From: an uncultured Candidatus Saccharibacteria bacterium
GTDB lineage: Bacteria > Patescibacteriota > Minisyncoccia > Phycocordibacterales > DATDWN01
NCBI GenBank assembly: GCA_964369145.1
Contig: CAYJEE010000001.1
Location: 2,052-66,051, forward strand
Reading direction: 5' to 3'
Length of the DNA stretch: 64,000 bases
The notes below the pieces were generated by a model. It saw only the letters and a list, made by a program, of their open reading frames with translations, was not told where the DNA came from and searched no databases. How positions within the stretch are numbered: the first letter of the stretch is position 1; each line of letters begins with the position of its first letter. Below are positions 11,457 to 57,008 of this stretch, in pieces. The translations under genes were made by a program, and so were the position numbers.

Positions 11457-12269
11457 CTATAAATACTTCTCTATATTTTTCTTATGCTCCTCATACGTCC
11501 TCGCACAGTGAATTCTTCTCTTTTTGTCGTGAAGGTAAAACATACAACTTGTTTTCTGAGGGTTGTATGCTGCCTCGAGTGCTGCTAGTCCTGGGTTTGC
11601 AATCGCGGTTGGCGGAAGACTTTTGTTTTTGTAAGTGTTGTACGGTGAGATAATAAACTTGTCCTCGGATTTTACCTGTGGCCACCAGAGATCTTCGTCA
11701 CCTTTTGCATACTGGAGGGTCGCATCCATTTGAAGCTTCATACCGGCGAAAATACGGTTCCAGATAATGCCGGAGATCAGGCGCATATCACTTTTTCCAC
11801 CAGCTTCTCGTTGAATAATCGAAGCGACGATAAGTGCAGTGTCTTCATTTAAAATCTGACTGGTTTTTCCTTTTTTAATCTGACTTGTTTTTTTGTCATA
11901 GGTCGAGATCATGAGCTTACTCACATCCTTCGGCTCTGCATCTTTCATGATCATGTAGTTCTGAGGAAAGTAAAAACCTTCAGAGGTTTCTTTGCCGAGT
12001 GCGATATGTGCATTGAGGAATTCTGCTTTTTCTTTATCATCCCAGCCGAGTTTGTTTCCTACTGACTCTGCGACTTGTTCTTTGCGCCAACCTTCTTGAA
12101 CATAGATTATGCGCACCGAAGGGTTGGCGAGATTTTGATAAAAAGAAAGTGATGCGAGTTCAGAAAAGGGTATGTTGAAATGATGGAGGAGGTATCCGAG
12201 TGCAATGAGTGGAACAAACGGGACAACCATAAAGTATGGAACTTTTTTGAGTCTAAAGAATCGTTTCAT
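11457..12269 (-). CDS. mltG: MltG/YceG-like endolytic transglycosylase (paralog 1)
   Basis: C-terminal ...NTYKNKSLPPTAIANPGLAALEAA... and N-terminal TM anchor. Confidence 0.7.
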   Translation of the reverse strand: MKRFFRLKKVPYFMVVPFVPLIALGYLLHHFNIPFSELASLSFYQNLANPSVRIIYVQEGWRKEQVAESVGNKLGWDDKEKAEFLNAHIALGKETSEGFYFPQNYMIMKDAEPKDVSKLMISTYDKKTSQIKKGKTSQILNEDTALIVASIIQREAGGKSDMRLISGIIWNRIFAGMKLQMDATLQYAKGDEDLWWPQVKSEDKFIISPYNTYKNKSLPPTAIANPGLAALEAAYNPQKTSCMFYLHDKKRRIHCARTYEEHKKNIEKYL

Positions 12270-12311: not shown

Positions 12312-12542
12312 ATGTCACTAAAAAATTTTTTCCTTAAAAAAATGCTTGCGTCGAAAATGAAAGGTGTGCCACAAGAAGAGCAAGATAAAATATTTAATAT
12401 GATTGAAAAAAATCCAGATCTTTTTCAGAAGATTGGTACTGAAGTGCAAGAAAAAATGCAAAAAGAAGGGAAGGATCAGATGACCGCAGCGATGGAAGTG
12501 ATGCAGAAACATAAGGACCAACTCCAGGGCCTCATGAAGTAA
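12312..12542 (+). CDS. small Lys/Glu/Met-rich hypothetical protein (76 aa)
   Basis: ORF only. Confidence 0.35.
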   Translation: MSLKNFFLKKMLASKMKGVPQEEQDKIFNMIEKNPDLFQKIGTEVQEKMQKEGKDQMTAAMEVMQKHKDQLQGLMK

Positions 12543-12663
12543 AACTTCCACATTTGGCCAATCTCATCGGCTAAAATCTAGGAACGGTCCTCAACGTACG
12601 ACGTGTACGTCTCCGGTCCCTTCCCAGATTTTATCCGCGACCTTGTCTCAAATCTGAAAGTTT
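12543..12663 (+). repeat. about 120-nt conserved structured intergenic element, copy 1
   Basis: about 85% identical to 32984-33115; contains the acgtac-loop-gtacgt hairpin; stem changes are compensatory between copies. Confidence 0.6.
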
Positions 12664-12763
12664 ATAAATCTCTAGAAAAACGTATGTTTTAAGCTCTGAT
12701 AAAATACCACTCTTGAACCGAGTGATTTTTTATATCCGAATGTGCTATCCACAGCAAATTTTG

Positions 12764-12795
12764 TTGACGGTGAACGTGTGTTCACCTATGATAAT
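12764..12795 (+). promoter_or_regulatory. sigma70-like promoter (TTGACG-17-TATGAT) with Cheo-like LexA box GGTGAACGTGTGTTCACC in the spacer
   Basis: GAAC-N4-GTTC palindrome at 12769-12786 matches the CGAACRNRYGTTYC core 12/14. Confidence 0.55.
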
Positions 12796-12829
12796 GATAT
12801 ACAAGAAACGCATAATAATTATTAAAACC

Positions 12830-13039
12830 ATGAGTAAACAACATTTTGAAAAAGCATTACGAGACGAACTTGAAGTATTAAATGAGACGATTGATCGAAA
12901 GATTATCAAAGGTCTTTCGTACGCAGCTGAAGCTCGTCGTCACAAAACGATTCTTTCTCAAATACTCGAGATACGACGTCGAGAGACACGGTCTGGTTGG
13001 TTTTCTCGCTCATTTGGGTTTACTTCATTTATATTCTAA
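12830..13039 (+). CDS. small helical protein (69 aa) with hydrophobic C-terminus, translationally coupled to lexA (TAATG overlap)
   Basis: ATG at 12830; its stop TAA overlaps the lexA ATG at 13039. Confidence 0.4.
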   Translation: MSKQHFEKALRDELEVLNETIDRKIIKGLSYAAEARRHKTILSQILEIRRRETRSGWFSRSFGFTSFIF

Positions 13040-13602
13040 TGAATTCATACAAAGATAAAATTTTTGCTTTTTACGGTCGGCATAAACGGATGCCAAACTA
13101 TCAAGAAATCATGGATCTTGTTGGTTTCAAATCCAAGAATGCAGTCTACAAACTCATCAACAAACTCATCGATGAGGGTGTAGTGACCAAAGATGCAAAA
13201 GGTAAGCTTGCCCCGACAAAAGCTTTCGATGAAATACCTCTCTTGGGTCTCGTCGAAGCGGGGTTTCCGACTACAGCTGAAGAAGAAAAACTTGAAACAT
13301 TGTCGCTCGACAACTATCTCATCAAACACAAAGAGTCTACATACCTTTTGGAAGTCAAAGGTGACTCGATGATCGACGAAGGGATTAAAGAAGGTGACCT
13401 TGTTATCGTGGAGCGCCGAGGCGATGCAAAAGAAGGGGATATTGTGATTGCAGAAGTCGATGGTGGATGGACGATGAAATACTACAAGAAAAAAGGTAAT
13501 CAAATATACCTCATGCCCGCCAACAAAAACTACAAACCCATCTATCCAGAATACGATCTCAAGATTGCAGCAATTGTGAAGGGGGTAATACGGAAGTATT
13601 AA
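13039..13602 (+). CDS. lexA: LexA-like repressor (wHTH + S24 peptidase)
   Basis: VKGDSM Ser nucleophile and downstream Lys (TMKYYKKKG); N-terminal wHTH IMDLVGFKSKNAVYKLINKLIDEGVV. Confidence 0.8.
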   Translation: MNSYKDKIFAFYGRHKRMPNYQEIMDLVGFKSKNAVYKLINKLIDEGVVTKDAKGKLAPTKAFDEIPLLGLVEAGFPTTAEEEKLETLSLDNYLIKHKESTYLLEVKGDSMIDEGIKEGDLVIVERRGDAKEGDIVIAEVDGGWTMKYYKKKGNQIYLMPANKNYKPIYPEYDLKIAAIVKGVIRKY

Positions 13603-13678
13603 AAGCATTATGCAAAAAATGCATATTACAAAGCCAAAGGGACTCCTTGCGGAGCCCTTAAGCGATACATTTATAGCA

Positions 13679-13758
13679 ACTAGTTCCCAAATGGAACTAG
13701 TTGTTCTGTCATTAAAACCAGATATGTGCATTTTAACTATCCGGAAATTCCGGATAGT
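13679..13758. promoter_or_regulatory. two adjacent perfect 25-bp palindromes aactaGTTCCcaaatGGAACtagtt and aactaTCCGGaaattCCGGAtagtt
   Basis: identical outer arms, different inner 5-bp stems, 5-nt loops; 55 bp apart downstream of lexA. Confidence 0.4.
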
Positions 13759-13920
13759 TAAAGAATAAACAAGACAACCCTCCTTTCGGAAGATTGCCCT
13801 TGGATTGTAGTACCCTTACAGTTATTAAAAACCATAAGACTTACTTAGTATAAATGATTTTTTTATGTTTGCCCATTAAAGGGCGAGGCCGAAGCCACTT
13901 ATAAGACAAGTATATCAAAC

Positions 13921-13970
13921 TATGTAAAAAGTTAAAACCCGCCACGAAGCAATTTCTTGCTTCGGGCGGG
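13921..13970 (-). terminator. hairpin cccgcc-a-cgaagcaa...ttgcttcg-ggcggg + T-rich tail on minus strand
   Basis: 14-bp stem; ends the 13987-14244 minus gene. Confidence 0.6.
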
Positions 13971-13986
13971 TATCGGAAATGAACAA

Positions 13987-14244
13987 TCAGGTCTGAATTG
14001 GAGAGAATCCAATCTTTCTCTTTGCGGGTTTTATTAACTTGCTTAGATGAGCTCTTATGTCCGTAAAGGGAGAGTCGAGGGCGAAGTCGGCAAATTCCGT
14101 GAATTGCTCGATATTCAATCCATATTCCCTCGCTCCGTCCTCAAGCCATGTATGAAGTTTCTTGGAATCTTCTGGGGGTTTACTCGTCCATACTACTCGC
14201 CGAGCAATCGCAAGGGCAATCTTATCACGTTCTTCTTCTGTCAT
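13987..14244 (-). CDS. small hypothetical protein (85 aa)
   Basis: ORF with terminator. Confidence 0.4.
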   Translation of the reverse strand: MTEEERDKIALAIARRVVWTSKPPEDSKKLHTWLEDGAREYGLNIEQFTEFADFALDSPFTDIRAHLSKLIKPAKRKIGFSPIQT

Positions 14245-14329
14245 TTTTCACCTTATAATATAAGAACATATTTAAACATAAATAGCAATAGCTTTAAAAA
14301 AACTATTTTTTATGCAATAATGTTTTTCT

Positions 14330-15427
14330 ATGTCACTTTCTATCGGAATTGTGGGGTTGCCGAATGTCGGGAAATCGACGCTTTTTAATGCGTTGACTAA
14401 AAAGTCTGTGCCCGCGGAAAACTATCCGTTTTGTACGATCGACCCATCTGTGGGGGTAGTACCAGTGCCTGATGAGAGACTCTACAAGCTTGCTGATTTT
14501 TCTAAAACCCAAAAAACATTGCCTGCGGTTGTGGAATTTGTGGATATTGCAGGTCTCGTAAAGGGGGCTTCGACTGGAGAAGGATTGGGAAATAAATTTT
14601 TGCAGAATATCCGAGAGGTAGACGCGATCCTTCAGGTGGTGCGTATTTTTGAGGATGTAAATGTGATTCATGTGCACAATGAAGTGAACCCTCTGTCTGA
14701 TATTGAAGTGATCAACCTCGAACTCGTGCTTGCAGACCAGGAGACTGTCGCAAAGCGTATTTCAAATGTACAAAAAGATGTTAAAAAAGGTGATAAGGAA
14801 GCAATCTTTGAAGCAGAAGTGCTCGAACGAGCAAAAGCACAGCTTGAGCTTGGAAAACTTCTCAACCAGCTCGAACTCACAGAAAAAGAAGCGCTTGCGC
14901 TCAAAGGTCTTCACTTGCTGACCATGAAGCCAATCATGTATGGGCTCAACAAAAAAGCGGGGAATAAAAACCTCGATGAAATGAATGATGAGCGATACAA
15001 AAAACTTATTGCATTTTTCGAAGAACAAAAAGCACAGTATGTGATTATCGATGCGGGTATTGAACATGAACTCAAAGATTTGGAGGGAGACGACAAAGAG
15101 CTTTTCAGAACTGAGCTTGGTGGAAAAACTGATGGTATCGATGAACTGATCAAAGCAGGCTACGCTCTTTTGGATTTGATTACCTACTTCACAACCGGAG
15201 AAAAAGAAACTCGTGCATGGACTATTAAAAAAGGCTGGACTGCGCCGCTCGCAGGTACTGCAATCCACACTGACTTTAAAGACAAGTTTATCAGAGCTGA
15301 AGTAGTCTTTTGGAAAGATTTGCTTGACTCAGGCTCATATGGAGCTGCTCGTGAAAAAGGTCTTGTTCGTACTGAAGGGAAAGAATATATTGTGAAAGAC
15401 GGTGATGTGATTGAGTTCCGTATCTAG
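14330..15427 (+). CDS. ychF: ribosome-binding ATPase YchF (Obg-family GTPase + TGS domain)
   Basis: GIVGLPNVGKSTLFNALT P-loop; C-terminal TGS. Confidence 0.9.
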   Translation: MSLSIGIVGLPNVGKSTLFNALTKKSVPAENYPFCTIDPSVGVVPVPDERLYKLADFSKTQKTLPAVVEFVDIAGLVKGASTGEGLGNKFLQNIREVDAILQVVRIFEDVNVIHVHNEVNPLSDIEVINLELVLADQETVAKRISNVQKDVKKGDKEAIFEAEVLERAKAQLELGKLLNQLELTEKEALALKGLHLLTMKPIMYGLNKKAGNKNLDEMNDERYKKLIAFFEEQKAQYVIIDAGIEHELKDLEGDDKELFRTELGGKTDGIDELIKAGYALLDLITYFTTGEKETRAWTIKKGWTAPLAGTAIHTDFKDKFIRAEVVFWKDLLDSGSYGAAREKGLVRTEGKEYIVKDGDVIEFRI

Positions 15428-21712: not shown

Positions 21713-22732
21713 ATGGACGAAATACATACACAAACAGAAGAACAAAAAGAGACTCTTTTACTCGAAGAGCCGTCTTTTTTTCATACGTACAAACGAGTCT
21801 TTTTGTCAGCACTTATCGCTTTGTGTGCATTGAGTGTGGTGGTGTATGTATCCGTGTGGAGAACTCCAGGAGATTTCCCTGTGCACACTGTCGTTACAGT
21901 AAAAACAGGTGAGAGTTTGGAAGTTGTCACCCAAAAATTCACAACACTGCGGTTGATCCGTTCACCGTTTGTGTTTCGAAGTTTGGTGATTTTACTTGGT
22001 GGAGAAAAAAAGGTAACTGCGGGAGATTATTTGTTGACTGACCGGGAAAGCCCGCTTACGTTGGCGTGGCGTATTATGGAAGGTAAGTTTGGTATGGAAC
22101 CCATAAAAGTGACAATACCTGAAGGGCTAAATAATGAAGAAATTTCTGCTATTCTTGGTAAAAAATTAGTAGTATTTGATAAGGTATCTTTTGAAAGAGA
22201 AGCAGTCAAAAGAGAAGGGTATTTGTTTCCTGATACATACTTTTTTCCACCTACAGCAAAACCAGAAGAAGTGATTGGTCGTATGGAGGATAACTTTACA
22301 GAAAAAATAAAAAGTCTCGAAGCTGATATTCAAGCATTTGGTAAGTCGTTGTCTGATGTGGTGATTATGGCATCGATTCTTGAAGGTGAAGCGAAAGATA
22401 CTGAGTCGAGACGTATCGTAGCGGGGATTTTGTGGAAAAGAATTTCAATCGGTATGCCGCTTCAGGTGGATGCAACGTTTAAATATATTAATGGAAAGGA
22501 TAGTTCTACTCTTACGCTTGAAGATTTAAAGACGGATTCTGCATACAATACATATACAAATAGAGGGCTTCCACCAACACCGATCAATAATCCAGGAATA
22601 GATGCGCTTTTGGCTGCAGTAAATCCAATCAAAACAGATTATTTGTATTTTCTTACAGGTAAAGATGGGAAAATGTATTATGCAAAAACTTTTGAACAGC
22701 ATAAAGTTAATAAGCAGAAGTATTTGAAGTAA
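21713..22732 (+). CDS. mltG: MltG/YceG-like endolytic transglycosylase (paralog 2)
   Basis: ...NTYTNRGLPPTPINNPGIDALLAAVNP...; same architecture as 11457-12269. Confidence 0.75.
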   Translation: MDEIHTQTEEQKETLLLEEPSFFHTYKRVFLSALIALCALSVVVYVSVWRTPGDFPVHTVVTVKTGESLEVVTQKFTTLRLIRSPFVFRSLVILLGGEKKVTAGDYLLTDRESPLTLAWRIMEGKFGMEPIKVTIPEGLNNEEISAILGKKLVVFDKVSFEREAVKREGYLFPDTYFFPPTAKPEEVIGRMEDNFTEKIKSLEADIQAFGKSLSDVVIMASILEGEAKDTESRRIVAGILWKRISIGMPLQVDATFKYINGKDSSTLTLEDLKTDSAYNTYTNRGLPPTPINNPGIDALLAAVNPIKTDYLYFLTGKDGKMYYAKTFEQHKVNKQKYLK

Positions 22733-30233: not shown

Positions 30234-30656
30234 ATGTGGATACTTTATGCACTTATCTCAGCGCTTTTTGCAGGCATGGTGGCGGTCTTTGGAAAGCTTG
30301 GGCTTAAGAATATTGATTCGACTCTTGCGACTACAGTGCGCTCATTTATCATGGCGGGGTTTCTCGGGGTGACCGCTCTTGCACTGAAAAAGTTTCAAGG
30401 TTTTTCACTTTCAACATTTACGGGGCGTGAGTGGGCGTATATTGCACTCTCTGGTGTAGCGGGAGCACTCTCATGGCTCTTTTACTTCGTGGCACTCAAA
30501 AATGGAACTGCGGTGACTGTCTCTGCGATCGACCGATTGAGTATTGTCTTTGTGCTCGTATTTGCAGCACTCTTTTTAGGCGAAGGGTTTACCTTGTGGA
30601 AAGTGGTGGGTGTGCTCTGTATTGCACTTGGTGCTTTCTTGACTACTTTGAAATAG
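30234..30656 (+). CDS. EamA-like (DMT superfamily) small transporter
   Basis: 4-TM EamA-type pattern. Confidence 0.55.
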   Translation: MWILYALISALFAGMVAVFGKLGLKNIDSTLATTVRSFIMAGFLGVTALALKKFQGFSLSTFTGREWAYIALSGVAGALSWLFYFVALKNGTAVTVSAIDRLSIVFVLVFAALFLGEGFTLWKVVGVLCIALGAFLTTLK

Positions 30657-44659: not shown

Positions 44660-44733
44660 ACTCCGCCCTAGGGTACCCCTTTGGCGGATTACATACATAT
44701 CCACAAGGATAAATAAGAAAATTTGATATACTT

Positions 44734-46051: not shown

Positions 46052-46256
46052 GAATTATAGGTCAAATAACTTGGCAATTTTAAAGTATTTTTCAGAGGGT
46101 TTCTAGAAATGGCTCAATAAAGCCATTTATTTTAGTGTTTGTAAAGTCAATAGAATAACTGTGGATAACTATTGACAATTTTTTAAAAAGGGTTAGAGTT
46201 TACATCAGATAGGGACACAGATCCCTCAACATTTCTTTCATAAGGAGTGGAAAGCC

Positions 46257-47090: not shown

Positions 47091-47216
47091 CCACTCCACA
47101 ACAATACAGCCGCCATACCCCTCGAGGTCGTGGCGGCTTTTACCATATATAAATTCTTTATCCACACTTTTTGATTTTACACAGTATTGTTTTTTTCTCT
47201 GTGATATAATTTCTTC

Positions 47217-51860: not shown

Positions 51861-52010
51861 AAGTAAAGCATGTCGCACTACAAGAGTACTAATGTATTAC
51901 TAAGGCCCCTATGCAGGGGACCTAAGTAATACATGTCGCACCACAAGAGTACTAGTTAGTATCTAACGAGGGGATGAACCCCTCGAAGATACTAATGTCG
52001 CACAATATAT
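51861..52010. repeat. about 63-bp tandem degenerate repeat (2.5 units), each unit = AAGTAA..CATGTCGCAC.ACAAGAGTACTA motif + GC hairpin (CCCCT..AGGGG or GAGGGG..CCCCTC)
   Basis: units start at 51861, 51924 and 51986. Confidence 0.5.
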
Positions 52011-52175
52011 CTTTTGTACATGCTCGTACGAGGAGGCTTGGGCTTTTAATTGAATCATTTAAAATTTTAGAATCCCAAATTGATATATTTATATAAAAAA
52101 ATTCCCACTCTCCCCTTGAGGTAGGATTCATTTTTGTTTCTCTTTTTATATACCTTTTTTACTTTTATCTCTTAT

Positions 52176-52225
52176 TTTACTTCTCTTTAAAAATCCATAT
52201 TCCCAGTAGGGAAGTCCCCTGCCCT
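52176..52225 (+). promoter_or_regulatory. 48-bp element tttacttct(c)tttaaaaatcc(a)tattcccagtagggaagtcccctgccct, copy A
   Basis: near-identical to 55631-55678 (copy B). Confidence 0.6.
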
Positions 52226-52268
52226 TTTTCTCCATTCTTCTTATTAATTTGATATAATATATGTCTAT

Positions 52269-55200
52269 ATGATACGTAGAGTTATATTAAAATTATTTTT
52301 GGTAACAAGTACTTTTATGTTTTGCTGCGGGATTACATTTCCGTACGTTGGTGTACTAGAAGCTGCAGATGCGCTGATTATTTCTAATATTGGAGTAGAT
52401 AGTGTTTCCTACACATCTGTGCGTATTCAATGGAATACAGATATACCCGCTTCATTGTCTCGAGTAAAATATGACACTGTAGCAACAGAAGAGCCATTTA
52501 CAAACGGTACAGCTAACAAACTTAGTAATACTAGTACAATTCATGGATATACTCTTGGTGGTCTTGCGCCAAATACACTTTACAATTTTAAAGTGTGTTC
52601 AACGGTAAATTCAATCGAAACATGTAGCCCCACTCAGAATTTCACTACAACAGCTGCACCTTCAAATCGTTTTTCTCCGCCAACACTTCCAAACTCTGCT
52701 ACGTTGTCTTCTATGCCTACGATAAACGGTACTACACACACTGTAGCAGCTGATTGTAGTGATTTGCAGATAAAAATAAATACTGCCGCAGCAACGTCCG
52801 GCTCATTGAATCATCAAATTCTTATTCCTCCTACTGCTCTTTGTAAAGGTAATTATGAGCTTCCGTCTCGAGCTGGTACGGGTTGGATTGTAGTCCGTTC
52901 TGCGGCAAGTGATGCCCAGCTTCCTCCGGAAGGTACCCGTGTAGGCCTTAGTTATGCGCCTGTTATGCCCACTATTTACGGGCTAGTTGAAGGTGAGACA
53001 CATTTACAATCAACTATTTTTACAGAGAATCCAACTTCTAAATGGAGATTTGTTGGTGTTCAGATTAAAGGAAGTGCAGGGCGACGTGGATCAGCGGTTC
53101 ATCTTGGACGCGGAGTATCAACAGATATCATTTTTGATAGAGATATTTTTGATATATCAGGGGATACTACATATACCGTAAGAAATGAAGGTGTCCGCAA
53201 TATTGTTGCACATTCATATATCCATCATGTAAAAACAGGCTCTCTCGCAGTGGCAATTGGTCTGACGAACTCACAATATGCTCTGATTGATAACAACTAT
53301 ATCAATGCTCCTGGTATTAGCATTTTTGGTGAAGAAGGAGGAGGAAATCTACCGCCAGCTTCGGATATTACAATCACTCGAAACTTTTTTGAATGGGATA
53401 GTGTGAACAAAACAAATACAATAGTAAGACATCAATTAGAATTTAAATCAGGGGAAAGAATTCTCATTAGGGGTAATATCTTTAAAGACTCATGGACTGG
53501 CGGAATTACTGGTGGCATGGCACAAGTAATACTTTTCTTTCCAAGAGCAGGTTGGAGTGGTTCCATACGAAATTCATTAAATTATATTGCTGACGTGACT
53601 ATAAAAGATAATGTTCTTATTAATACTGCTGGCGGAATTGGCTTAGTTGGATCTGAATCGGCTGGAGTAGCTTCTGACGTAGCTTCAACTAAACGTTTTC
53701 TCATTAAGAACAATATTTTTTATAAGTTAAATGGTTATAATGGCGCTCCCGGTAATGCAGTAGCAGGATCTCCTTTTTATATTGCAGGAGCAATTGAAGA
53801 TGTAGTGATTGATCACAATACGATATATGATCCAAGAGGACTGTTTCCTGCTACTATTTGGTTTCTTGAAAACGTGGGTGCTGGTTTAAAATTAACCAAT
53901 AACATTATTACACAAAATTATACGAGTAGTATTGGTGGCTTTTACAAAAATACAGATTATCCAGGTCAGCTTCCAGTAGTAACGAACGGTAGCGCGTTTT
54001 CAACAATTGGCGGATCAGTGCGTGCAGCACCAAATGTAGACCCTACTCTTTTGGTACAAGGTAATCTTATTCTTCCTGGGGTTACTGACACTAGCTCAGA
54101 ATCAGCGTACTCAAATCCTTCTTCTTTCTATTCTCTTGCGAGCTGTACTACCTACTGGTCTGGCTTTACAAATAATGCTTGTGCGGGTAATATTTCTACG
54201 CTTACAGCAAACTCAGTAACTGCATCAGTTGGTTTTGCTAATACGTCTACATTCTCTGGTTTATATTTAGCATCTGGTCCATACAAAAATAGTGCTTCGG
54301 ATGGAGCAGATCCTGGAGTTGATATAAATAATTTAAATGCTCAAGTATCAAATACTATGACCGGCGGTTATGTTCCCCCTCCCCCCTCCGACACCACTCC
54401 CCCTGTCTTTTCTAATATTTCAGCCGGCACAATCACCACTGACTCAGTGATGGTCACCTGGACAACAAACGAATCCTCTGACACTCAGGTAGAATACGGA
54501 CTCACTGCAAGCTATGGTTCGTCTTCAACATTAAATGCAACACTCGGATCATCTCACAGCGTACCCCTTACATCACTGACTCCAAACACCCTATATCATT
54601 ATCGTGTAAAATCTAGAGACGGTGCAGGCAACCAAGCGATTTCCGCAGATCAAACCTTCACAACACGTGCTGTCGTAGCGACAGTGGTAGATCCGACATT
54701 AAATGTAGTCACAAAAGATTTCGGTAGTCTTCCGGTTGGTTCATCTACTCAACCATTCATGTTTTCAATCAACAATCCAAACAGTTCTTTTGTTGGAGTC
54801 AGTGCTGTGGCAGTAACGGGTGATTTTTCAATCACTACAAACTACTGTACTTCCGGTATGCAACCTTCTACTCACTGTGACATATATGTTGCTTTTAACC
54901 CCTCTACAAGTGGAACACGAACAGGTACTCTCATCATCACTCTTACAGGTGCTTCTACAAACACACTCTCTGTCACACTTGCCGGTACAGGAACAGCAGT
55001 CAACACACCAGAAGACCCTCCAATCCTTCCTCCACCTCCAGTTATCACACCCCCTCCTGTAGTCACTCCTCCTATCATTCCTCCTCCTCAAAAGATACCT
55101 CCACCAGGAATCATCATCACCAAAACTCTTGCTCGAGGAATGACTTCTCCCGAGATTATCATTCTTCAAACCCATCTCAAACAAATTGGTTTGTTTGAGA

Positions 55201-55601
55201 ACTCAATACAGACAAGCAACTACTTTGGTCCGGCAACAGAAAGAGCGGTTAAACTCTATCAAGCATCTAAAGGAATCGAGCAGACTGGTATCGTCGGCCC
55301 ACTAACACGAGGAAGCTTAGCTGGATCATCGACTCCACCACAAACTGTTACTTCTCAAGTACTTCCTACAACTGTATACATCGGTGTGAAGCATTCTGAT
55401 GTAGTGAAGTTACAAAATATTCTCAAGAGACTTGGTTTCTTCCCACAGAATGTTGATTCTTCAGGATACTTTGGCCCTACCACAAAAAAAGCGGTGCAGG
55501 CATTCCAGAGACAATACACTATTGCCTCAAGTGGTACTGAAAATACCACTGGGTACGGTATGGTGGGAAAGAAAACGTGGGCTAAGCTTTTAGGTTTGTA
55601 A
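52269..55601 (+). CDS. cell-wall-anchored surface enzyme: Fn3-like N-terminus, right-handed beta-helix (pectate-lyase-like) domain, Fn3, Pro-rich linker, two PG_binding_1 domains
   Basis: parallel beta-helix repeats; Fn3 with ...TPNTLYHYRVKSRD...; C-terminal PG-binding repeats. Confidence 0.65.
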   Translation: MIRRVILKLFLVTSTFMFCCGITFPYVGVLEAADALIISNIGVDSVSYTSVRIQWNTDIPASLSRVKYDTVATEEPFTNGTANKLSNTSTIHGYTLGGLAPNTLYNFKVCSTVNSIETCSPTQNFTTTAAPSNRFSPPTLPNSATLSSMPTINGTTHTVAADCSDLQIKINTAAATSGSLNHQILIPPTALCKGNYELPSRAGTGWIVVRSAASDAQLPPEGTRVGLSYAPVMPTIYGLVEGETHLQSTIFTENPTSKWRFVGVQIKGSAGRRGSAVHLGRGVSTDIIFDRDIFDISGDTTYTVRNEGVRNIVAHSYIHHVKTGSLAVAIGLTNSQYALIDNNYINAPGISIFGEEGGGNLPPASDITITRNFFEWDSVNKTNTIVRHQLEFKSGERILIRGNIFKDSWTGGITGGMAQVILFFPRAGWSGSIRNSLNYIADVTIKDNVLINTAGGIGLVGSESAGVASDVASTKRFLIKNNIFYKLNGYNGAPGNAVAGSPFYIAGAIEDVVIDHNTIYDPRGLFPATIWFLENVGAGLKLTNNIITQNYTSSIGGFYKNTDYPGQLPVVTNGSAFSTIGGSVRAAPNVDPTLLVQGNLILPGVTDTSSESAYSNPSSFYSLASCTTYWSGFTNNACAGNISTLTANSVTASVGFANTSTFSGLYLASGPYKNSASDGADPGVDINNLNAQVSNTMTGGYVPPPPSDTTPPVFSNISAGTITTDSVMVTWTTNESSDTQVEYGLTASYGSSSTLNATLGSSHSVPLTSLTPNTLYHYRVKSRDGAGNQAISADQTFTTRAVVATVVDPTLNVVTKDFGSLPVGSSTQPFMFSINNPNSSFVGVSAVAVTGDFSITTNYCTSGMQPSTHCDIYVAFNPSTSGTRTGTLIITLTGASTNTLSVTLAGTGTAVNTPEDPPILPPPPVITPPPVVTPPIIPPPQKIPPPGIIITKTLARGMTSPEIIILQTHLKQIGLFENSIQTSNYFGPATERAVKLYQASKGIEQTGIVGPLTRGSLAGSSTPPQTVTSQVLPTTVYIGVKHSDVVKLQNILKRLGFFPQNVDSSGYFGPTTKKAVQAFQRQYTIASSGTENTTGYGMVGKKTWAKLLGL
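55099..55601 (+). repeat. left copy of a ~503-bp inverted duplication (C-terminal 164 codons + stop of the surface protein; encoded aa 100% identical to the right copy)
   Basis: encoded aa identical to the gene 58255-60561 C-terminus; antisense translations 55355-55549 and 58217-58501 are also identical (64 aa); nt identity compared directly only in part. Confidence 0.85.
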
Positions 55602-55630
55602 TTCTGGATTATTTGTGACCTTAGATCATC

Positions 55631-55678
55631 TTTACTTCTTTAAAAATCCCTATTCCCAGTAGGGAAGTCCCCTGCCCT
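55631..55678 (+). promoter_or_regulatory. 48-bp element copy B, followed directly by TATAAT, upstream of the ECF sigma gene
   Basis: ...cccctgccctataatag. Confidence 0.6.
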
Positions 55679-55739
55679 ATAATAGATTGTTCGCTATAAA
55701 TTATTAAAAGGTACTATTGCAATATTCTATATTTGATGT

Positions 55740-56330
55740 ATGGTTTGTACCAGAGGAACCATTATGGAACCTGATATTTTGACTGTTTTACCAATAGTCG
55801 ACAAGTTGGTACGAGTGCTTACACGGGATTATCCACCGTGGGTGCGTGAGGGTTATTTCGACGATATGGTGCAGGTGGCCAGAATACGGATACTTGCACG
55901 TATTGGTACATATGATCCATCGAAGGCGCCGTTGAATCATTTCTTGACTCTGCACACACGTTGGGCGATTCGCGAGTACCTTAGAAGTAAGGAGTTCATT
56001 TTTGATCGATTCGTGCCGATTAGAGGCGGAGAATTCGATGGCATCGATTCCGAAGGAGTTGATGTTGTGGATACCAATGCGTGTACCGAACTGCGCCTAG
56101 TTGGACATAGCAGGATTGCGGAGGTGCTTCAGCACCTACAAGATTCTGTAAGTGAAAAACAATGGAAAGCAGTTAAGTTGTACTACTTTGAAGAAAAAAC
56201 TCATGCTGAAATTGCAGGCATTCTCGGATTGTCTGTTGGATATGTTAGAGAAATTATTTCTCGTTCCCTCAATATCTTTCGCGAAAAGCTTTTTTCGTTA
56301 AGAATAGATTCAGCACGTCATGTGCTGTAA
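55740..56330 (+). CDS. ECF-type sigma-70 family factor (regions 2 and 4)
   Basis: region 2 YFDDMVQVARIRILARIGTYDPSKAPLNHFL..; region 4 EKTHAEIAGILGLSVGYVREIISRSL. Confidence 0.7.
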   Translation: MVCTRGTIMEPDILTVLPIVDKLVRVLTRDYPPWVREGYFDDMVQVARIRILARIGTYDPSKAPLNHFLTLHTRWAIREYLRSKEFIFDRFVPIRGGEFDGIDSEGVDVVDTNACTELRLVGHSRIAEVLQHLQDSVSEKQWKAVKLYYFEEKTHAEIAGILGLSVGYVREIISRSLNIFREKLFSLRIDSARHVL

Positions 56331-56359
56331 ATGAGATAGAGAACAACAGGGGGTGTGAT

Positions 56360-56959
56360 GTGGTGATTTTTGTCGTAAAAGGTCAGGAAGTAAATGACTT
56401 CCAGATTACGGGAATTTGTCATGTGCTCACTGAAGCGAAGCACAGAGTGATACGTGGCACAATGCAAATGCTCATTAGTGATTGCGGGAGGTCAAGAGTT
56501 GAGTGTGTCATCATTGTCAATGACCGCAGAACTGAACAAACTTTTCAGTTGATTTTGCAGGCGGTATCGACCTCCTGCAGTTCAGTTATTGTGCTCACAA
56601 CCAAGATACAGAAAATGGAAGCTGCGAGTCTGGATGTGCTTCCAAAGAGAGTGTCTGTTCTAAAGATGGATACACCGGCTGAGAAGCTCTTGCTCGTACT
56701 GCAACTCTGCAACACACATCAGGTGATTCATCCTGATGTTGTGAAGCAAGTCACTGTTCCTGAACAGGTCGGGTTTACACCAAGAGAGCGAGAAATTTTT
56801 TCACTTCTCGTAGATCCATCTTATACACAAAGAGATATCGCTGGGTTACTTCACATCTCAGAAAGCACCATGAATACGCATGCAACCAGCATAAACAAAA
56901 AATTACGGATACCGGGTGGAAGACTGCATCTTATACAGAGGTACAGCACCAAGCCGTAG
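56360..56959 (+). CDS. LuxR/GerE-family HTH regulator with degenerate receiver-like N-domain
   Basis: C-terminal TPREREIFSLLVDPSYTQRDIAGLLHISESTMNTHATSINKKL; N-domain lacks the DD/D/K phospho-relay residues. Confidence 0.6.
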   Translation: MVIFVVKGQEVNDFQITGICHVLTEAKHRVIRGTMQMLISDCGRSRVECVIIVNDRRTEQTFQLILQAVSTSCSSVIVLTTKIQKMEAASLDVLPKRVSVLKMDTPAEKLLLVLQLCNTHQVIHPDVVKQVTVPEQVGFTPREREIFSLLVDPSYTQRDIAGLLHISESTMNTHATSINKKLRIPGGRLHLIQRYSTKP

Positions 56960-57008
56960 CAACCAAGTTCTGTTTCAAAAAAGGCCCTCGATCGTGAGGG
57001 TCTTTCCT

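Follow-up and report, generated by a model that had tools for sequence, protein, structure and literature searches.

A LexA-box promoter joins lexA to a conserved small gene in a likely SOS operon of Paceibacteria

Why would a bacterium place a gene of only 69 codons between a LexA-type promoter and lexA itself, and what could its product do? The locus that raises this question lies on contig CAYJEE010000001.1, of which a stretch of 64,000 nucleotides (nt), hereafter the window, was analysed. A preliminary description, made from the letters of the window alone, had seen in it an SOS-type module in which a small open reading frame (ORF) would be expressed together with an autoregulated lexA. 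The explanation that best accounts for the whole of the evidence, and which is considered likely, is a two-gene SOS operon of Paceibacteria (Parcubacteria/Zambryskibacteria-like bacteria of the candidate phyla radiation) with a damage-induced small partner of LexA. The comparison draws on 65 lexA loci obtained by searching one genome per species, nearly all of them from metagenome-assembled genomes of Patescibacteria; these were classed by the identity of their LexA to that of the window (at least 60 % versus about 50 %), and individual loci of relatives are cited by their L numbers.

The operon is organized around a compact promoter on the plus strand. The −35 hexamer TTGACG (12764-12769) and the −10 hexamer TATGAT (12787-12792) are separated by a spacer of 17 base pairs (bp), which is filled by the LexA operator GGTGAACGTGTGTTCACC (GGTGAAC-GTGT-GTTCACC; 12769-12786, plus strand), an 18-bp palindrome with perfect 7-bp arms and a 4-nt centre. 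Within the operator, the conserved GTGAAC-N4-GTTCAC occupies positions 12770-12785 and the GAAC-N4-GTTC core positions 12772-12783. The small gene (12830-13039, plus strand; 69 amino acids, aa) and lexA (13039-13602, plus strand; 187 aa) follow, the TAA of the former (13037-13039) overlapping the ATG of the latter (13039-13041) in the sequence TAATG. Both hexamers, the palindrome, the 69-aa ORF, the TAA/ATG overlap and the S24/LexA gene were re-read exactly where the preliminary description had placed them, and the Cheo-type GAAC-N4-GTTC box that it had located inside the 17-bp spacer is confirmed. Further upstream, a terminator-like hairpin with a T-run, CACTCTTGAACCGAGTG (12708-12733, plus strand), closes a 76-aa gene, and both hairpin and T-run are kept in L001-L005. 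Because the transcript of this upstream gene ends at the hairpin, the promoter of the lexA operon stands alone.

Within the window alone, the core of the operator is not significant, since the GAAC-N4-GTTC motif, as defined in PMC4951493, occurs once where 1.18 copies are expected; its weight comes from the relatives. GTGAAC-N4-GTTCAC lies at the same position of the spacer at all 47 small-ORF loci, with L030 as the sole exception by one mismatch, and the box, flanked by a TTGAC −35 and by a −10 reading TATACT or TATAAT, is present in L060 and at all loci with a LexA identity of 60 % or more. This design was found in 59 distinct promoters of relatives, which form the set of box-bearing promoters compared here. 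In the 509 kb of related DNA examined for background, the core with up to one mismatch is almost confined to these promoters, about 0.03 copies of the exact core being expected by chance. A 16-bp weight matrix built from 43 unique orthologous sites gives the operator of the window a score of 30.6 bits, and the next best site in the 64 kb reaches 7.8 bits, within the range of shuffled sequences. No second operator was detected in the window by this matrix, including upstream of the uvrC-like gene (568-1866), for which the lack of a box had already been stated.

Other LexA lineages display the same core, spacing and promoter position with changed flanks, either TAGAAC-N4-GTTCTA or GGGAAC-N4-GTTCCC (L047-L058, L064), as would be expected if operator and repressor co-evolve. 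Leaders of about 100-225 nt, in which no conserved ORF was found, lie between the promoter and lexA in L052, L055, L056 and L058. The operator consensus of B. subtilis LexA is CGAAC...GTTCG; flanks of this type were not found here, and GTGAAC...GTTCAC is invariant in the matrix of the clade. On this comparison, GTGAAC...GTTCAC is a clade-specific variant of the Gram-positive-type LexA operator. Its half-sites and 4-nt spacing are identical to those of the GAAC-N4-GTTC motif established for LexA in Firmicutes and Actinobacteria (PMC4951493), and the overlap of the operator with the lexA promoter as well as the Ala-Gly and Ser/Lys residues of the repressor are shared with these systems. The differences consist in the GTGAAC flanks, in the exact filling of the −35/−10 spacer and in the short N-terminal domain of the repressor.

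The protein encoded by the downstream gene is, judging from family membership and alignment, a genuine LexA. It scores 128.4 bits against the NCBIfam equivalog TIGR00498 (cut-off 110.95 bits), with residues 17-186 covered, and matches Peptidase_S24 (PF00717) at 7e-30. Its alignment to E. coli LexA structures covers E. coli residues 25-197 and brings into register both the cleavage site (LVEAGFP vs RVAAGEP in E. coli), corresponding to Ala74-Gly75, and the dyad (GDSM vs GMSM and WTMKYY vs VTVKRL), in which Ser110 and Lys147 of the S24 domain are equivalent to Ser119 and Lys156 of E. coli. The S24 Ser/Lys residues previously noticed in this lexA-like gene are thus borne out. The winged helix-turn-helix N-terminal domain is short and divergent, since the Pfam LexA_DNA_bind family (PF01726) taken alone reaches only E = 0.04. 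A genuine LexA together with a promoter-overlapping operator conserved in relatives supports the SOS-type module with an autoregulated lexA as originally proposed, and it is very probable that the operon is subject to LexA autoregulation through this predicted operator of the Gram-positive type. By themselves, a LexA box and the autoregulation of lexA are ordinary and of a kind already known in Patescibacteria, whose SOS network is said to have been analysed in 2017 by Sanchez-Osuna, Barbe and Erill in Environ Microbiol 19:3465 (as cited in PMC8565304).

In relatives, the same box is also found at operons encoding error-prone polymerases. At L298, a box in the promoter spacer precedes a 100-aa S24-only (UmuD-like) gene and a Y-family polymerase gene (IMS, 3e-46), the operon lying between mltG and rpsB-tsf, while at L205 and L213 the box promoter is followed by lexA and a Y-family polymerase gene (IMS, 5e-41 and 3e-40, respectively). 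The most extended arrangement, L309 (3003-6213), was reached via a divergent homologue of the small protein. A single promoter of the same design (cTTGTCCACA...TTGACGGTGAACGAACGTTCACTTACTAT) precedes, on one strand, the small gene, lexA, a gene for a 487-aa nuclease, a 130-aa S24 (umuD-like) gene and an IMS-type polymerase gene, with intergenic gaps of 2-33 nt. The 487-aa product combines RNase_T, GIY-YIG, UvrC_M and Cho_C, that is, a DnaQ-like exonuclease fused to a cho-like nuclease. By its gene content, L309 is a compact SOS super-operon, and a small gene heading an SOS operon extended in this way appears new, as far as checked. SOS regulons have error-prone polymerases as their conserved core (PMC8565304), so that a box in front of such operons in relatives supports its reading as a LexA operator. 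A predicted SOS regulon under this box hence exists in relatives, and the boxes upstream of DNA-repair genes, on which the preliminary description had made its reading depend, are found at L298, L205, L213 and L309.

When viral and metagenome collections were scanned for the exact pattern GGTGAACNNNNGTTCACC, at least 120 matches were obtained; among the matches listed, there were about 12 lexA-type promoters and one umuD operon, and most lay in coding sequence or terminator hairpins, so that a scan of this kind cannot define the regulon. The copies of GGTGAAC-N4-GTTCACC found elsewhere, such as those at 4794-4811 of L279, at 5517-5534 of L114 and in many of the L186-L305 matches, mostly fold either into hairpins with flanking A- and T-runs (intrinsic terminators) or into a hairpin with a GCAA loop that is common to a viral contig and a restriction-modification locus; neither type is related to LexA. 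Two sites were considered as LexA targets and found unconvincing, namely L207, a promoter-like site with no gene downstream, and L279 (4794-4811), where such a GCAA-loop hairpin lies upstream of a restriction-modification system.

The small ORF is, on the evidence of its conservation and substitution pattern, a real coding gene. It was found by tblastn directly upstream of lexA in 46 of the 46 loci with a LexA identity of at least 60 %, at identities down to about 36 %. Its frame is open in all 38 orthologues used for the coding test, in which the other two frames are closed, and substitutions fall on codon positions 1, 2 and 3 in proportions of 30, 20 and 49 %. Profile searches yielded 508 proteins and, when made at the level of 50 % identity clusters, 325 of these; the listed members have lengths of 44-147 aa, are all named "hypothetical protein" in the source, and none is listed with a Pfam domain on record. 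A lack of conservation in relatives, which had been put forward as an argument against the functional reading of the 69-aa ORF, is therefore not what these 46 loci and 508 homologues display.

The linkage of this family to lexA is tight. For four diverse members, the S24/LexA gene always adjoins the small gene in neighbourhoods that are otherwise unrelated. At L311, about 190 nt separate the small gene from lexA downstream, and at L202 and L268 the order is reversed, the promoter being followed by lexA and then by the small gene after gaps of 20 and 8 nt, respectively. Moranbacteria-like and other lineages, whose LexA is only about 50 % identical, lack the small gene. The translational coupling of the small ORF to lexA by TAATG, as first described, stands for the window and five close relatives (L001-L004, L007), where the overlap is present, and falls as a conserved feature, the gaps elsewhere being 0-35 nt in 37 loci and 102-152 nt in 4 loci. 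Because TAATG is restricted to close relatives, the conserved feature is co-transcription rather than overlap-based translational coupling, and the transcription of the small gene with lexA from the LexA-box promoter is supported by this arrangement. An unannotated small-protein family locked to lexA throughout a class and in both gene orders appears, as far as checked, to be new.

The distance between the promoter and the first gene varies among relatives. The ATG of the first gene lies 6-8 nt after the −10 in L035, L036, L038-L041, L045, L311, L202 and L268, which implies a leaderless lexA-operon mRNA in several lineages. In L002, L006, L019 and L022, about 120 nt of additional 5′ leader without an Rfam match separate the promoter from the small ORF; L002 and L006 share a similar insert, from which those of L019 and L022 differ.

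The product of this orphan family is predicted to consist of a basic helical hairpin (residues 3-27 and 32 to about 50), a basic linker and an aromatic/hydrophobic tail (GWFSRSFGFTSFIF in the window). The AlphaFold2 model, a soluble hairpin based on an alignment of 41 diverse sequences, contains helices at residues 3-27 and 32-67; its predicted local distance difference test (pLDDT) score lies at 85-97 over residues 1-50, whereas the tail scores low. In the same alignment, 15 residues are invariant, including E7, E13, L14, N18, I21, D22, I25, G28, Y31, E34, R37, H38 and W57. The net charge is about +8, with about +5.6 in residues 1-50 and +2.2 in the remainder. F, S, L and W abound among the last 14 residues, and the final one is mostly F, L or I. 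At the C-terminus, the stretch devoid of charged residues has a median length of 9 aa, the rest of the protein being highly charged; as 9 uncharged residues are too short for a membrane span, there is no transmembrane helix. The hydrophobic moment of the tail peaks at 100-120 degrees, and longer members of the family have a linker of 15-30 residues, rich in R, K, P and S, inserted ahead of a similar tail. With its basic linker and aromatic tail, the protein could bind the membrane peripherally, as the tails of MinD and FtsA do, or the tail could be a protease degron, such as those of SulA and of Sda, itself a helical hairpin.

The small protein was not matched by any family of Pfam, NCBIfam, PHROGs or PADLOC, Pfam at E ≤ 1 returning just a chance DUF2065 and PHROGs nothing better than E = 0.013. 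No LysM or SulA domain was detected in it by Pfam/NCBIfam, a sequence-profile search of the PDB returned nothing below E = 0.09, and Foldseek, used with the model against the PDB, nothing below E = 0.6. The likeness to membrane-associated division inhibitors of the YneA, SulA or ChiZ kind, which had been suggested for the small ORF, is thus not supported, since it displays no transmembrane segment, no LysM, no SulA domain and neither sequence nor specific fold similarity to them. SulA, which is encoded in lexA-sulA operons in Pseudomonas, gave no match to the small protein. What is shared with YneA, SosA and ChiZ is a small, poorly conserved gene that is tied to lexA on the chromosome and controlled by a LexA box, and SosA was itself recognised through its synteny with lexA (PMC6851548). 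However, the proteins YneA, SosA and ChiZ span the membrane once, have an extracellular part that often contains LysM, and are encoded by genes divergent from lexA (PMC6851548, PMC13396833), whereas the small gene studied here is co-directional with lexA in the same operon and encodes a very basic, predicted cytoplasmic hairpin.

The promoter contains a further conserved element. A DnaA-box-like 9-mer, CTATCCACA (12745-12753, plus strand), is located 10 nt upstream of the −35 and matches the DnaA-box consensus TTATCCACA, taken from PMC8203912, at 8 of 9 positions. When the forward orientation is required and up to one mismatch allowed, such a 9-mer is present upstream of the −35 in 54 of the 59 distinct promoters, most relatives having the exact TTATCCACA; the 5 promoters without a forward copy include all three box promoters that lack the small gene (L205, L213 and L298). 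The promoter of L309 combines a variant of the 9-mer with its LexA box. Counted from the first base of the 9-mer, the operator core is reached after 16-17 nt (9 promoters), 22-27 nt (37 promoters, with a mode of 25) or 34-36 nt (8 promoters), and no promoter lies between these three classes. These classes are roughly one helical turn apart, as would be the case for a factor that must face RNA polymerase. Outside the lexA promoters, 20 exact copies occur in 391 kb against about 4.6 expected, and 17 of the 20 are intergenic, though intergenic DNA makes up 18 %. Being enriched and mostly intergenic, the 9-mer is a genuine regulatory word in these genomes.

Related words were also encountered. In the window, TATCCACA occurs 8 times against 2.5 expected, and 9-mers resembling TTATCCACA lie at 46160-46168 and 30234-30242 on the minus strand and at 47158-47166 and 44697-44705 on the plus strand. 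In several relatives, a composite element, AAAGTCAA-N5-TTATCCACA-N2-3-CTATTCACA, is found 1-2 kb downstream of lexA and may be a DnaA-box pair or the site of another regulator; the relatives involved in the intergenic enrichment or in this composite are L015, L018, L020, L021, L024 and L046. Whether DnaA is the protein that binds the 9-mer of the lexA promoter is an evenly balanced matter, with DnaA as the candidate suggested by the consensus. There is precedent for such an input, as in E. coli both DnaA and LexA are reported to regulate uvrB and recN, and the B. subtilis sda gene, encoding a small checkpoint protein, is directly controlled by DnaA (PMC8203912). These cases have in common with the present locus a consensus 9-mer at a damage-responsive promoter and, for sda, a small product. 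They differ in that a single box is here phased with the −35 of the lexA operon, that its binding by DnaA is predicted, and that the small protein has no homology to Sda. As far as checked, a phased DnaA-box-like element at a lexA promoter appears new.

How the operon would work can be proposed on the basis of established SOS biology, from which the occlusion of the promoter by LexA, its RecA-induced derepression and the joint rise of the small protein and LexA would follow. A LexA dimer bound to GTGAAC-N4-GTTCAC in the −35/−10 spacer would keep RNA polymerase off the promoter. Upon DNA damage, RecA assembled on single-stranded DNA would trigger the self-cleavage of LexA at Ala74-Gly75 by means of Ser110 and Lys147, and the promoter would open, giving rise to the 69-aa protein and fresh LexA from one transcript. 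That the small protein is damage-induced is accordingly regarded as quite probable. The 9-mer upstream of the −35 would probably add an input on replication status. With its strongly basic cytoplasmic hairpin and a short tail rich in Phe and Trp, which could serve either peripheral membrane attachment or marking for proteolysis, the protein would most likely hold back division or replication for a time as an effector of a damage checkpoint. Its likeness to SulA, YneA or SosA would then be one of function and not of homology.

For the function of the small protein, more caution is required. A checkpoint-type effector is a possibility that falls somewhat short of an even chance, and a division inhibitor in the specific sense is doubtful. 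Several observations weigh against such an effector and against the wider scheme. The small protein is, from its sequence, without a transmembrane helix and without similarity to known division inhibitors, and the amphipathic signal of its tail is weak (0.32 vs 0.26 ± 0.12 in shuffled tails). With so high a positive charge, the protein could just as well bind DNA or RNA. The 9-mer occurs singly and not in a cluster, with DnaA as a candidate binder only, and, as the window holds a single box and its uvrC-like gene has none, the evidence for a regulon comes from relatives. Finally, tight linkage in both gene orders is also typical of physically interacting partners, which favours a modulator of the SOS switch. 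Of the SOS-induced effector co-expressed with the repressor, as envisaged in the preliminary description, the conserved gene on the lexA promoter has therefore stood, and the effector role remains plausible by inference; a role as modulator of LexA, RecA or DnaA fits about equally.

As a modulator, the small protein would adjust repression or autocleavage through contacts with LexA, with RecA or with the DNA of the operator, like gp7, DinI or RecX, of which DinI and RecX modulate RecA. This is a tentative alternative, held to be rather unlikely in itself, to which the invariable adjacency to lexA with very short or overlapping junctions in both orders lends weight, such an arrangement being typical of proteins that act as a complex; a net charge of about +8 is also compatible with DNA contact beside LexA. 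A precedent is provided by gp7 of the Bacillus thuringiensis phage GIL01, a small protein that enhances the binding of LexA to DNA and blocks its RecA-mediated cleavage (PMC4551915). Both are small proteins functionally tied to LexA, but gp7 is phage-encoded and not co-transcribed with lexA, and neither the PHROG nor the PDB searches revealed sequence similarity to it; DinI and RecX are equally dissimilar. In addition, Moranbacteria-like loci as well as L205 and L213 have the same promoter design without the small protein, and the aromatic C-terminal tail would be left without an obvious role. Alternatively, the protein could regulate the initiation or the status of replication, like Sda or YabA, its synthesis being set jointly by LexA and, via TTATCCACA, by DnaA. 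The frequency of the 9-mer, the lack of a forward copy at the box promoters devoid of the small gene, the spacing by about one turn, which suggests a protein contacting RNA polymerase, and the precedent of sda all point in this direction. Yet the protein does not resemble Sda, YabA or SirA in sequence, phylogeny confounds the link between the 9-mer and the small gene, for which there are three counter-examples only, DnaA is a candidate binder of the 9-mer, and the 9-mer occurs in other intergenic regions too; this reading is improbable.

Two further readings fare much worse. S24 repressors with small neighbour genes are common in phages, and together with the weak LexA_DNA_bind match this could point to a prophage or mobile-element module made of a CI-like S24 repressor and a small Cro- or antirepressor-like gene. 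But the repressor passes the LexA equivalog cut-off, the neighbouring genes are housekeeping genes (zwf, mltG, ychF, leuS), no PHROG or PADLOC family matches, and umuD and Y-family polymerase operons of relatives are under the control of this box; this very improbable reading was rejected on account of the equivalog assignment, the neighbours and the polymerase operons. The 69-aa ORF, being short, without an annotated family and overlapping the start of lexA in the window, might also be thought a non-functional or purely regulatory leader ORF. This is scarcely credible in view of the excess of third-position substitutions, of a frame open in 38 of 38 orthologues with the alternatives closed, of 15 invariant residues in 41 diverse members and of a confidently predicted fold. 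Moreover, the gene is kept downstream of lexA in L202 and L268, where a leader role is impossible, and this position, together with the coding pattern, effectively refutes a leader peptide. The preferred explanation thus remains the two-gene SOS operon with a damage-induced small partner of LexA.

The surroundings of the operon in the window, of about 41 % G+C, consist of housekeeping genes, among them the uvrC-like gene, ddl, zwf, ychF, leuS, alaS, ribosomal protein genes, rpoA, grpE-dnaK-dnaJ and two mltG/yceG paralogues. These YceG/MltG-family paralogues are located at 11457-12269 (minus strand) and 21713-22732 (plus strand), and the mltG-lexA neighbourhood is seen again at L298, where mltG precedes the umuD-like operon. 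The cumulative GC skew is maximal at about 52000-57000 of the window, and gene orientation switches from mostly plus to mostly minus at about 57 kb, a combination that is compatible with a replication terminus. Immediately downstream of lexA and convergent with it lies a non-coding stretch of about 296 nt (13605-13900, minus strand), which is predicted to fold with −111.9 kcal/mol (z = −9.1 vs shuffles) into a structure with several perfect hairpins. Its homologue in L001 and L003-L005 sits after TTATCCACA and a TTGACA-17-TATACT promoter. No Rfam match was obtained for this stretch even at E ≤ 1 and no transfer-messenger RNA was found; likewise, Rfam returned nothing on the window, nothing on 12500-14350 at E ≤ 1 and nothing on the loci with long 5′ leaders. 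The stretch is probably an undescribed structured RNA.

Bacteria of the candidate phyla radiation are mostly uncultured and their cell-cycle control is almost unstudied. In this context, the locus offers a clean, testable promoter with two conserved operators, which drives an unannotated family of about 500 members locked to lexA, and it was from leads of this kind that SosA and YneA were identified in other bacteria. Should the small protein prove to be an effector or a modulator of LexA, the SOS repertoire would gain a non-homologous solution, and if the 9-mer proved to be bound by DnaA, replication status would feed into the lexA operon itself in an entire class of bacteria. The furthest-reaching possibility, which is tentative and on balance unlikely, is that of a new, Paceibacteria-specific class of SOS factor, in which a basic cytoplasmic hairpin with a membrane or degron tail would halt division or the initiation of replication, made from a promoter that joins a DNA-damage signal, through LexA on the spacer operator, with one of replication status, through DnaA on a helically phased TTATCCACA site. 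If true, it would give bacteria of the candidate phyla radiation their first identified component of a cell-cycle checkpoint.

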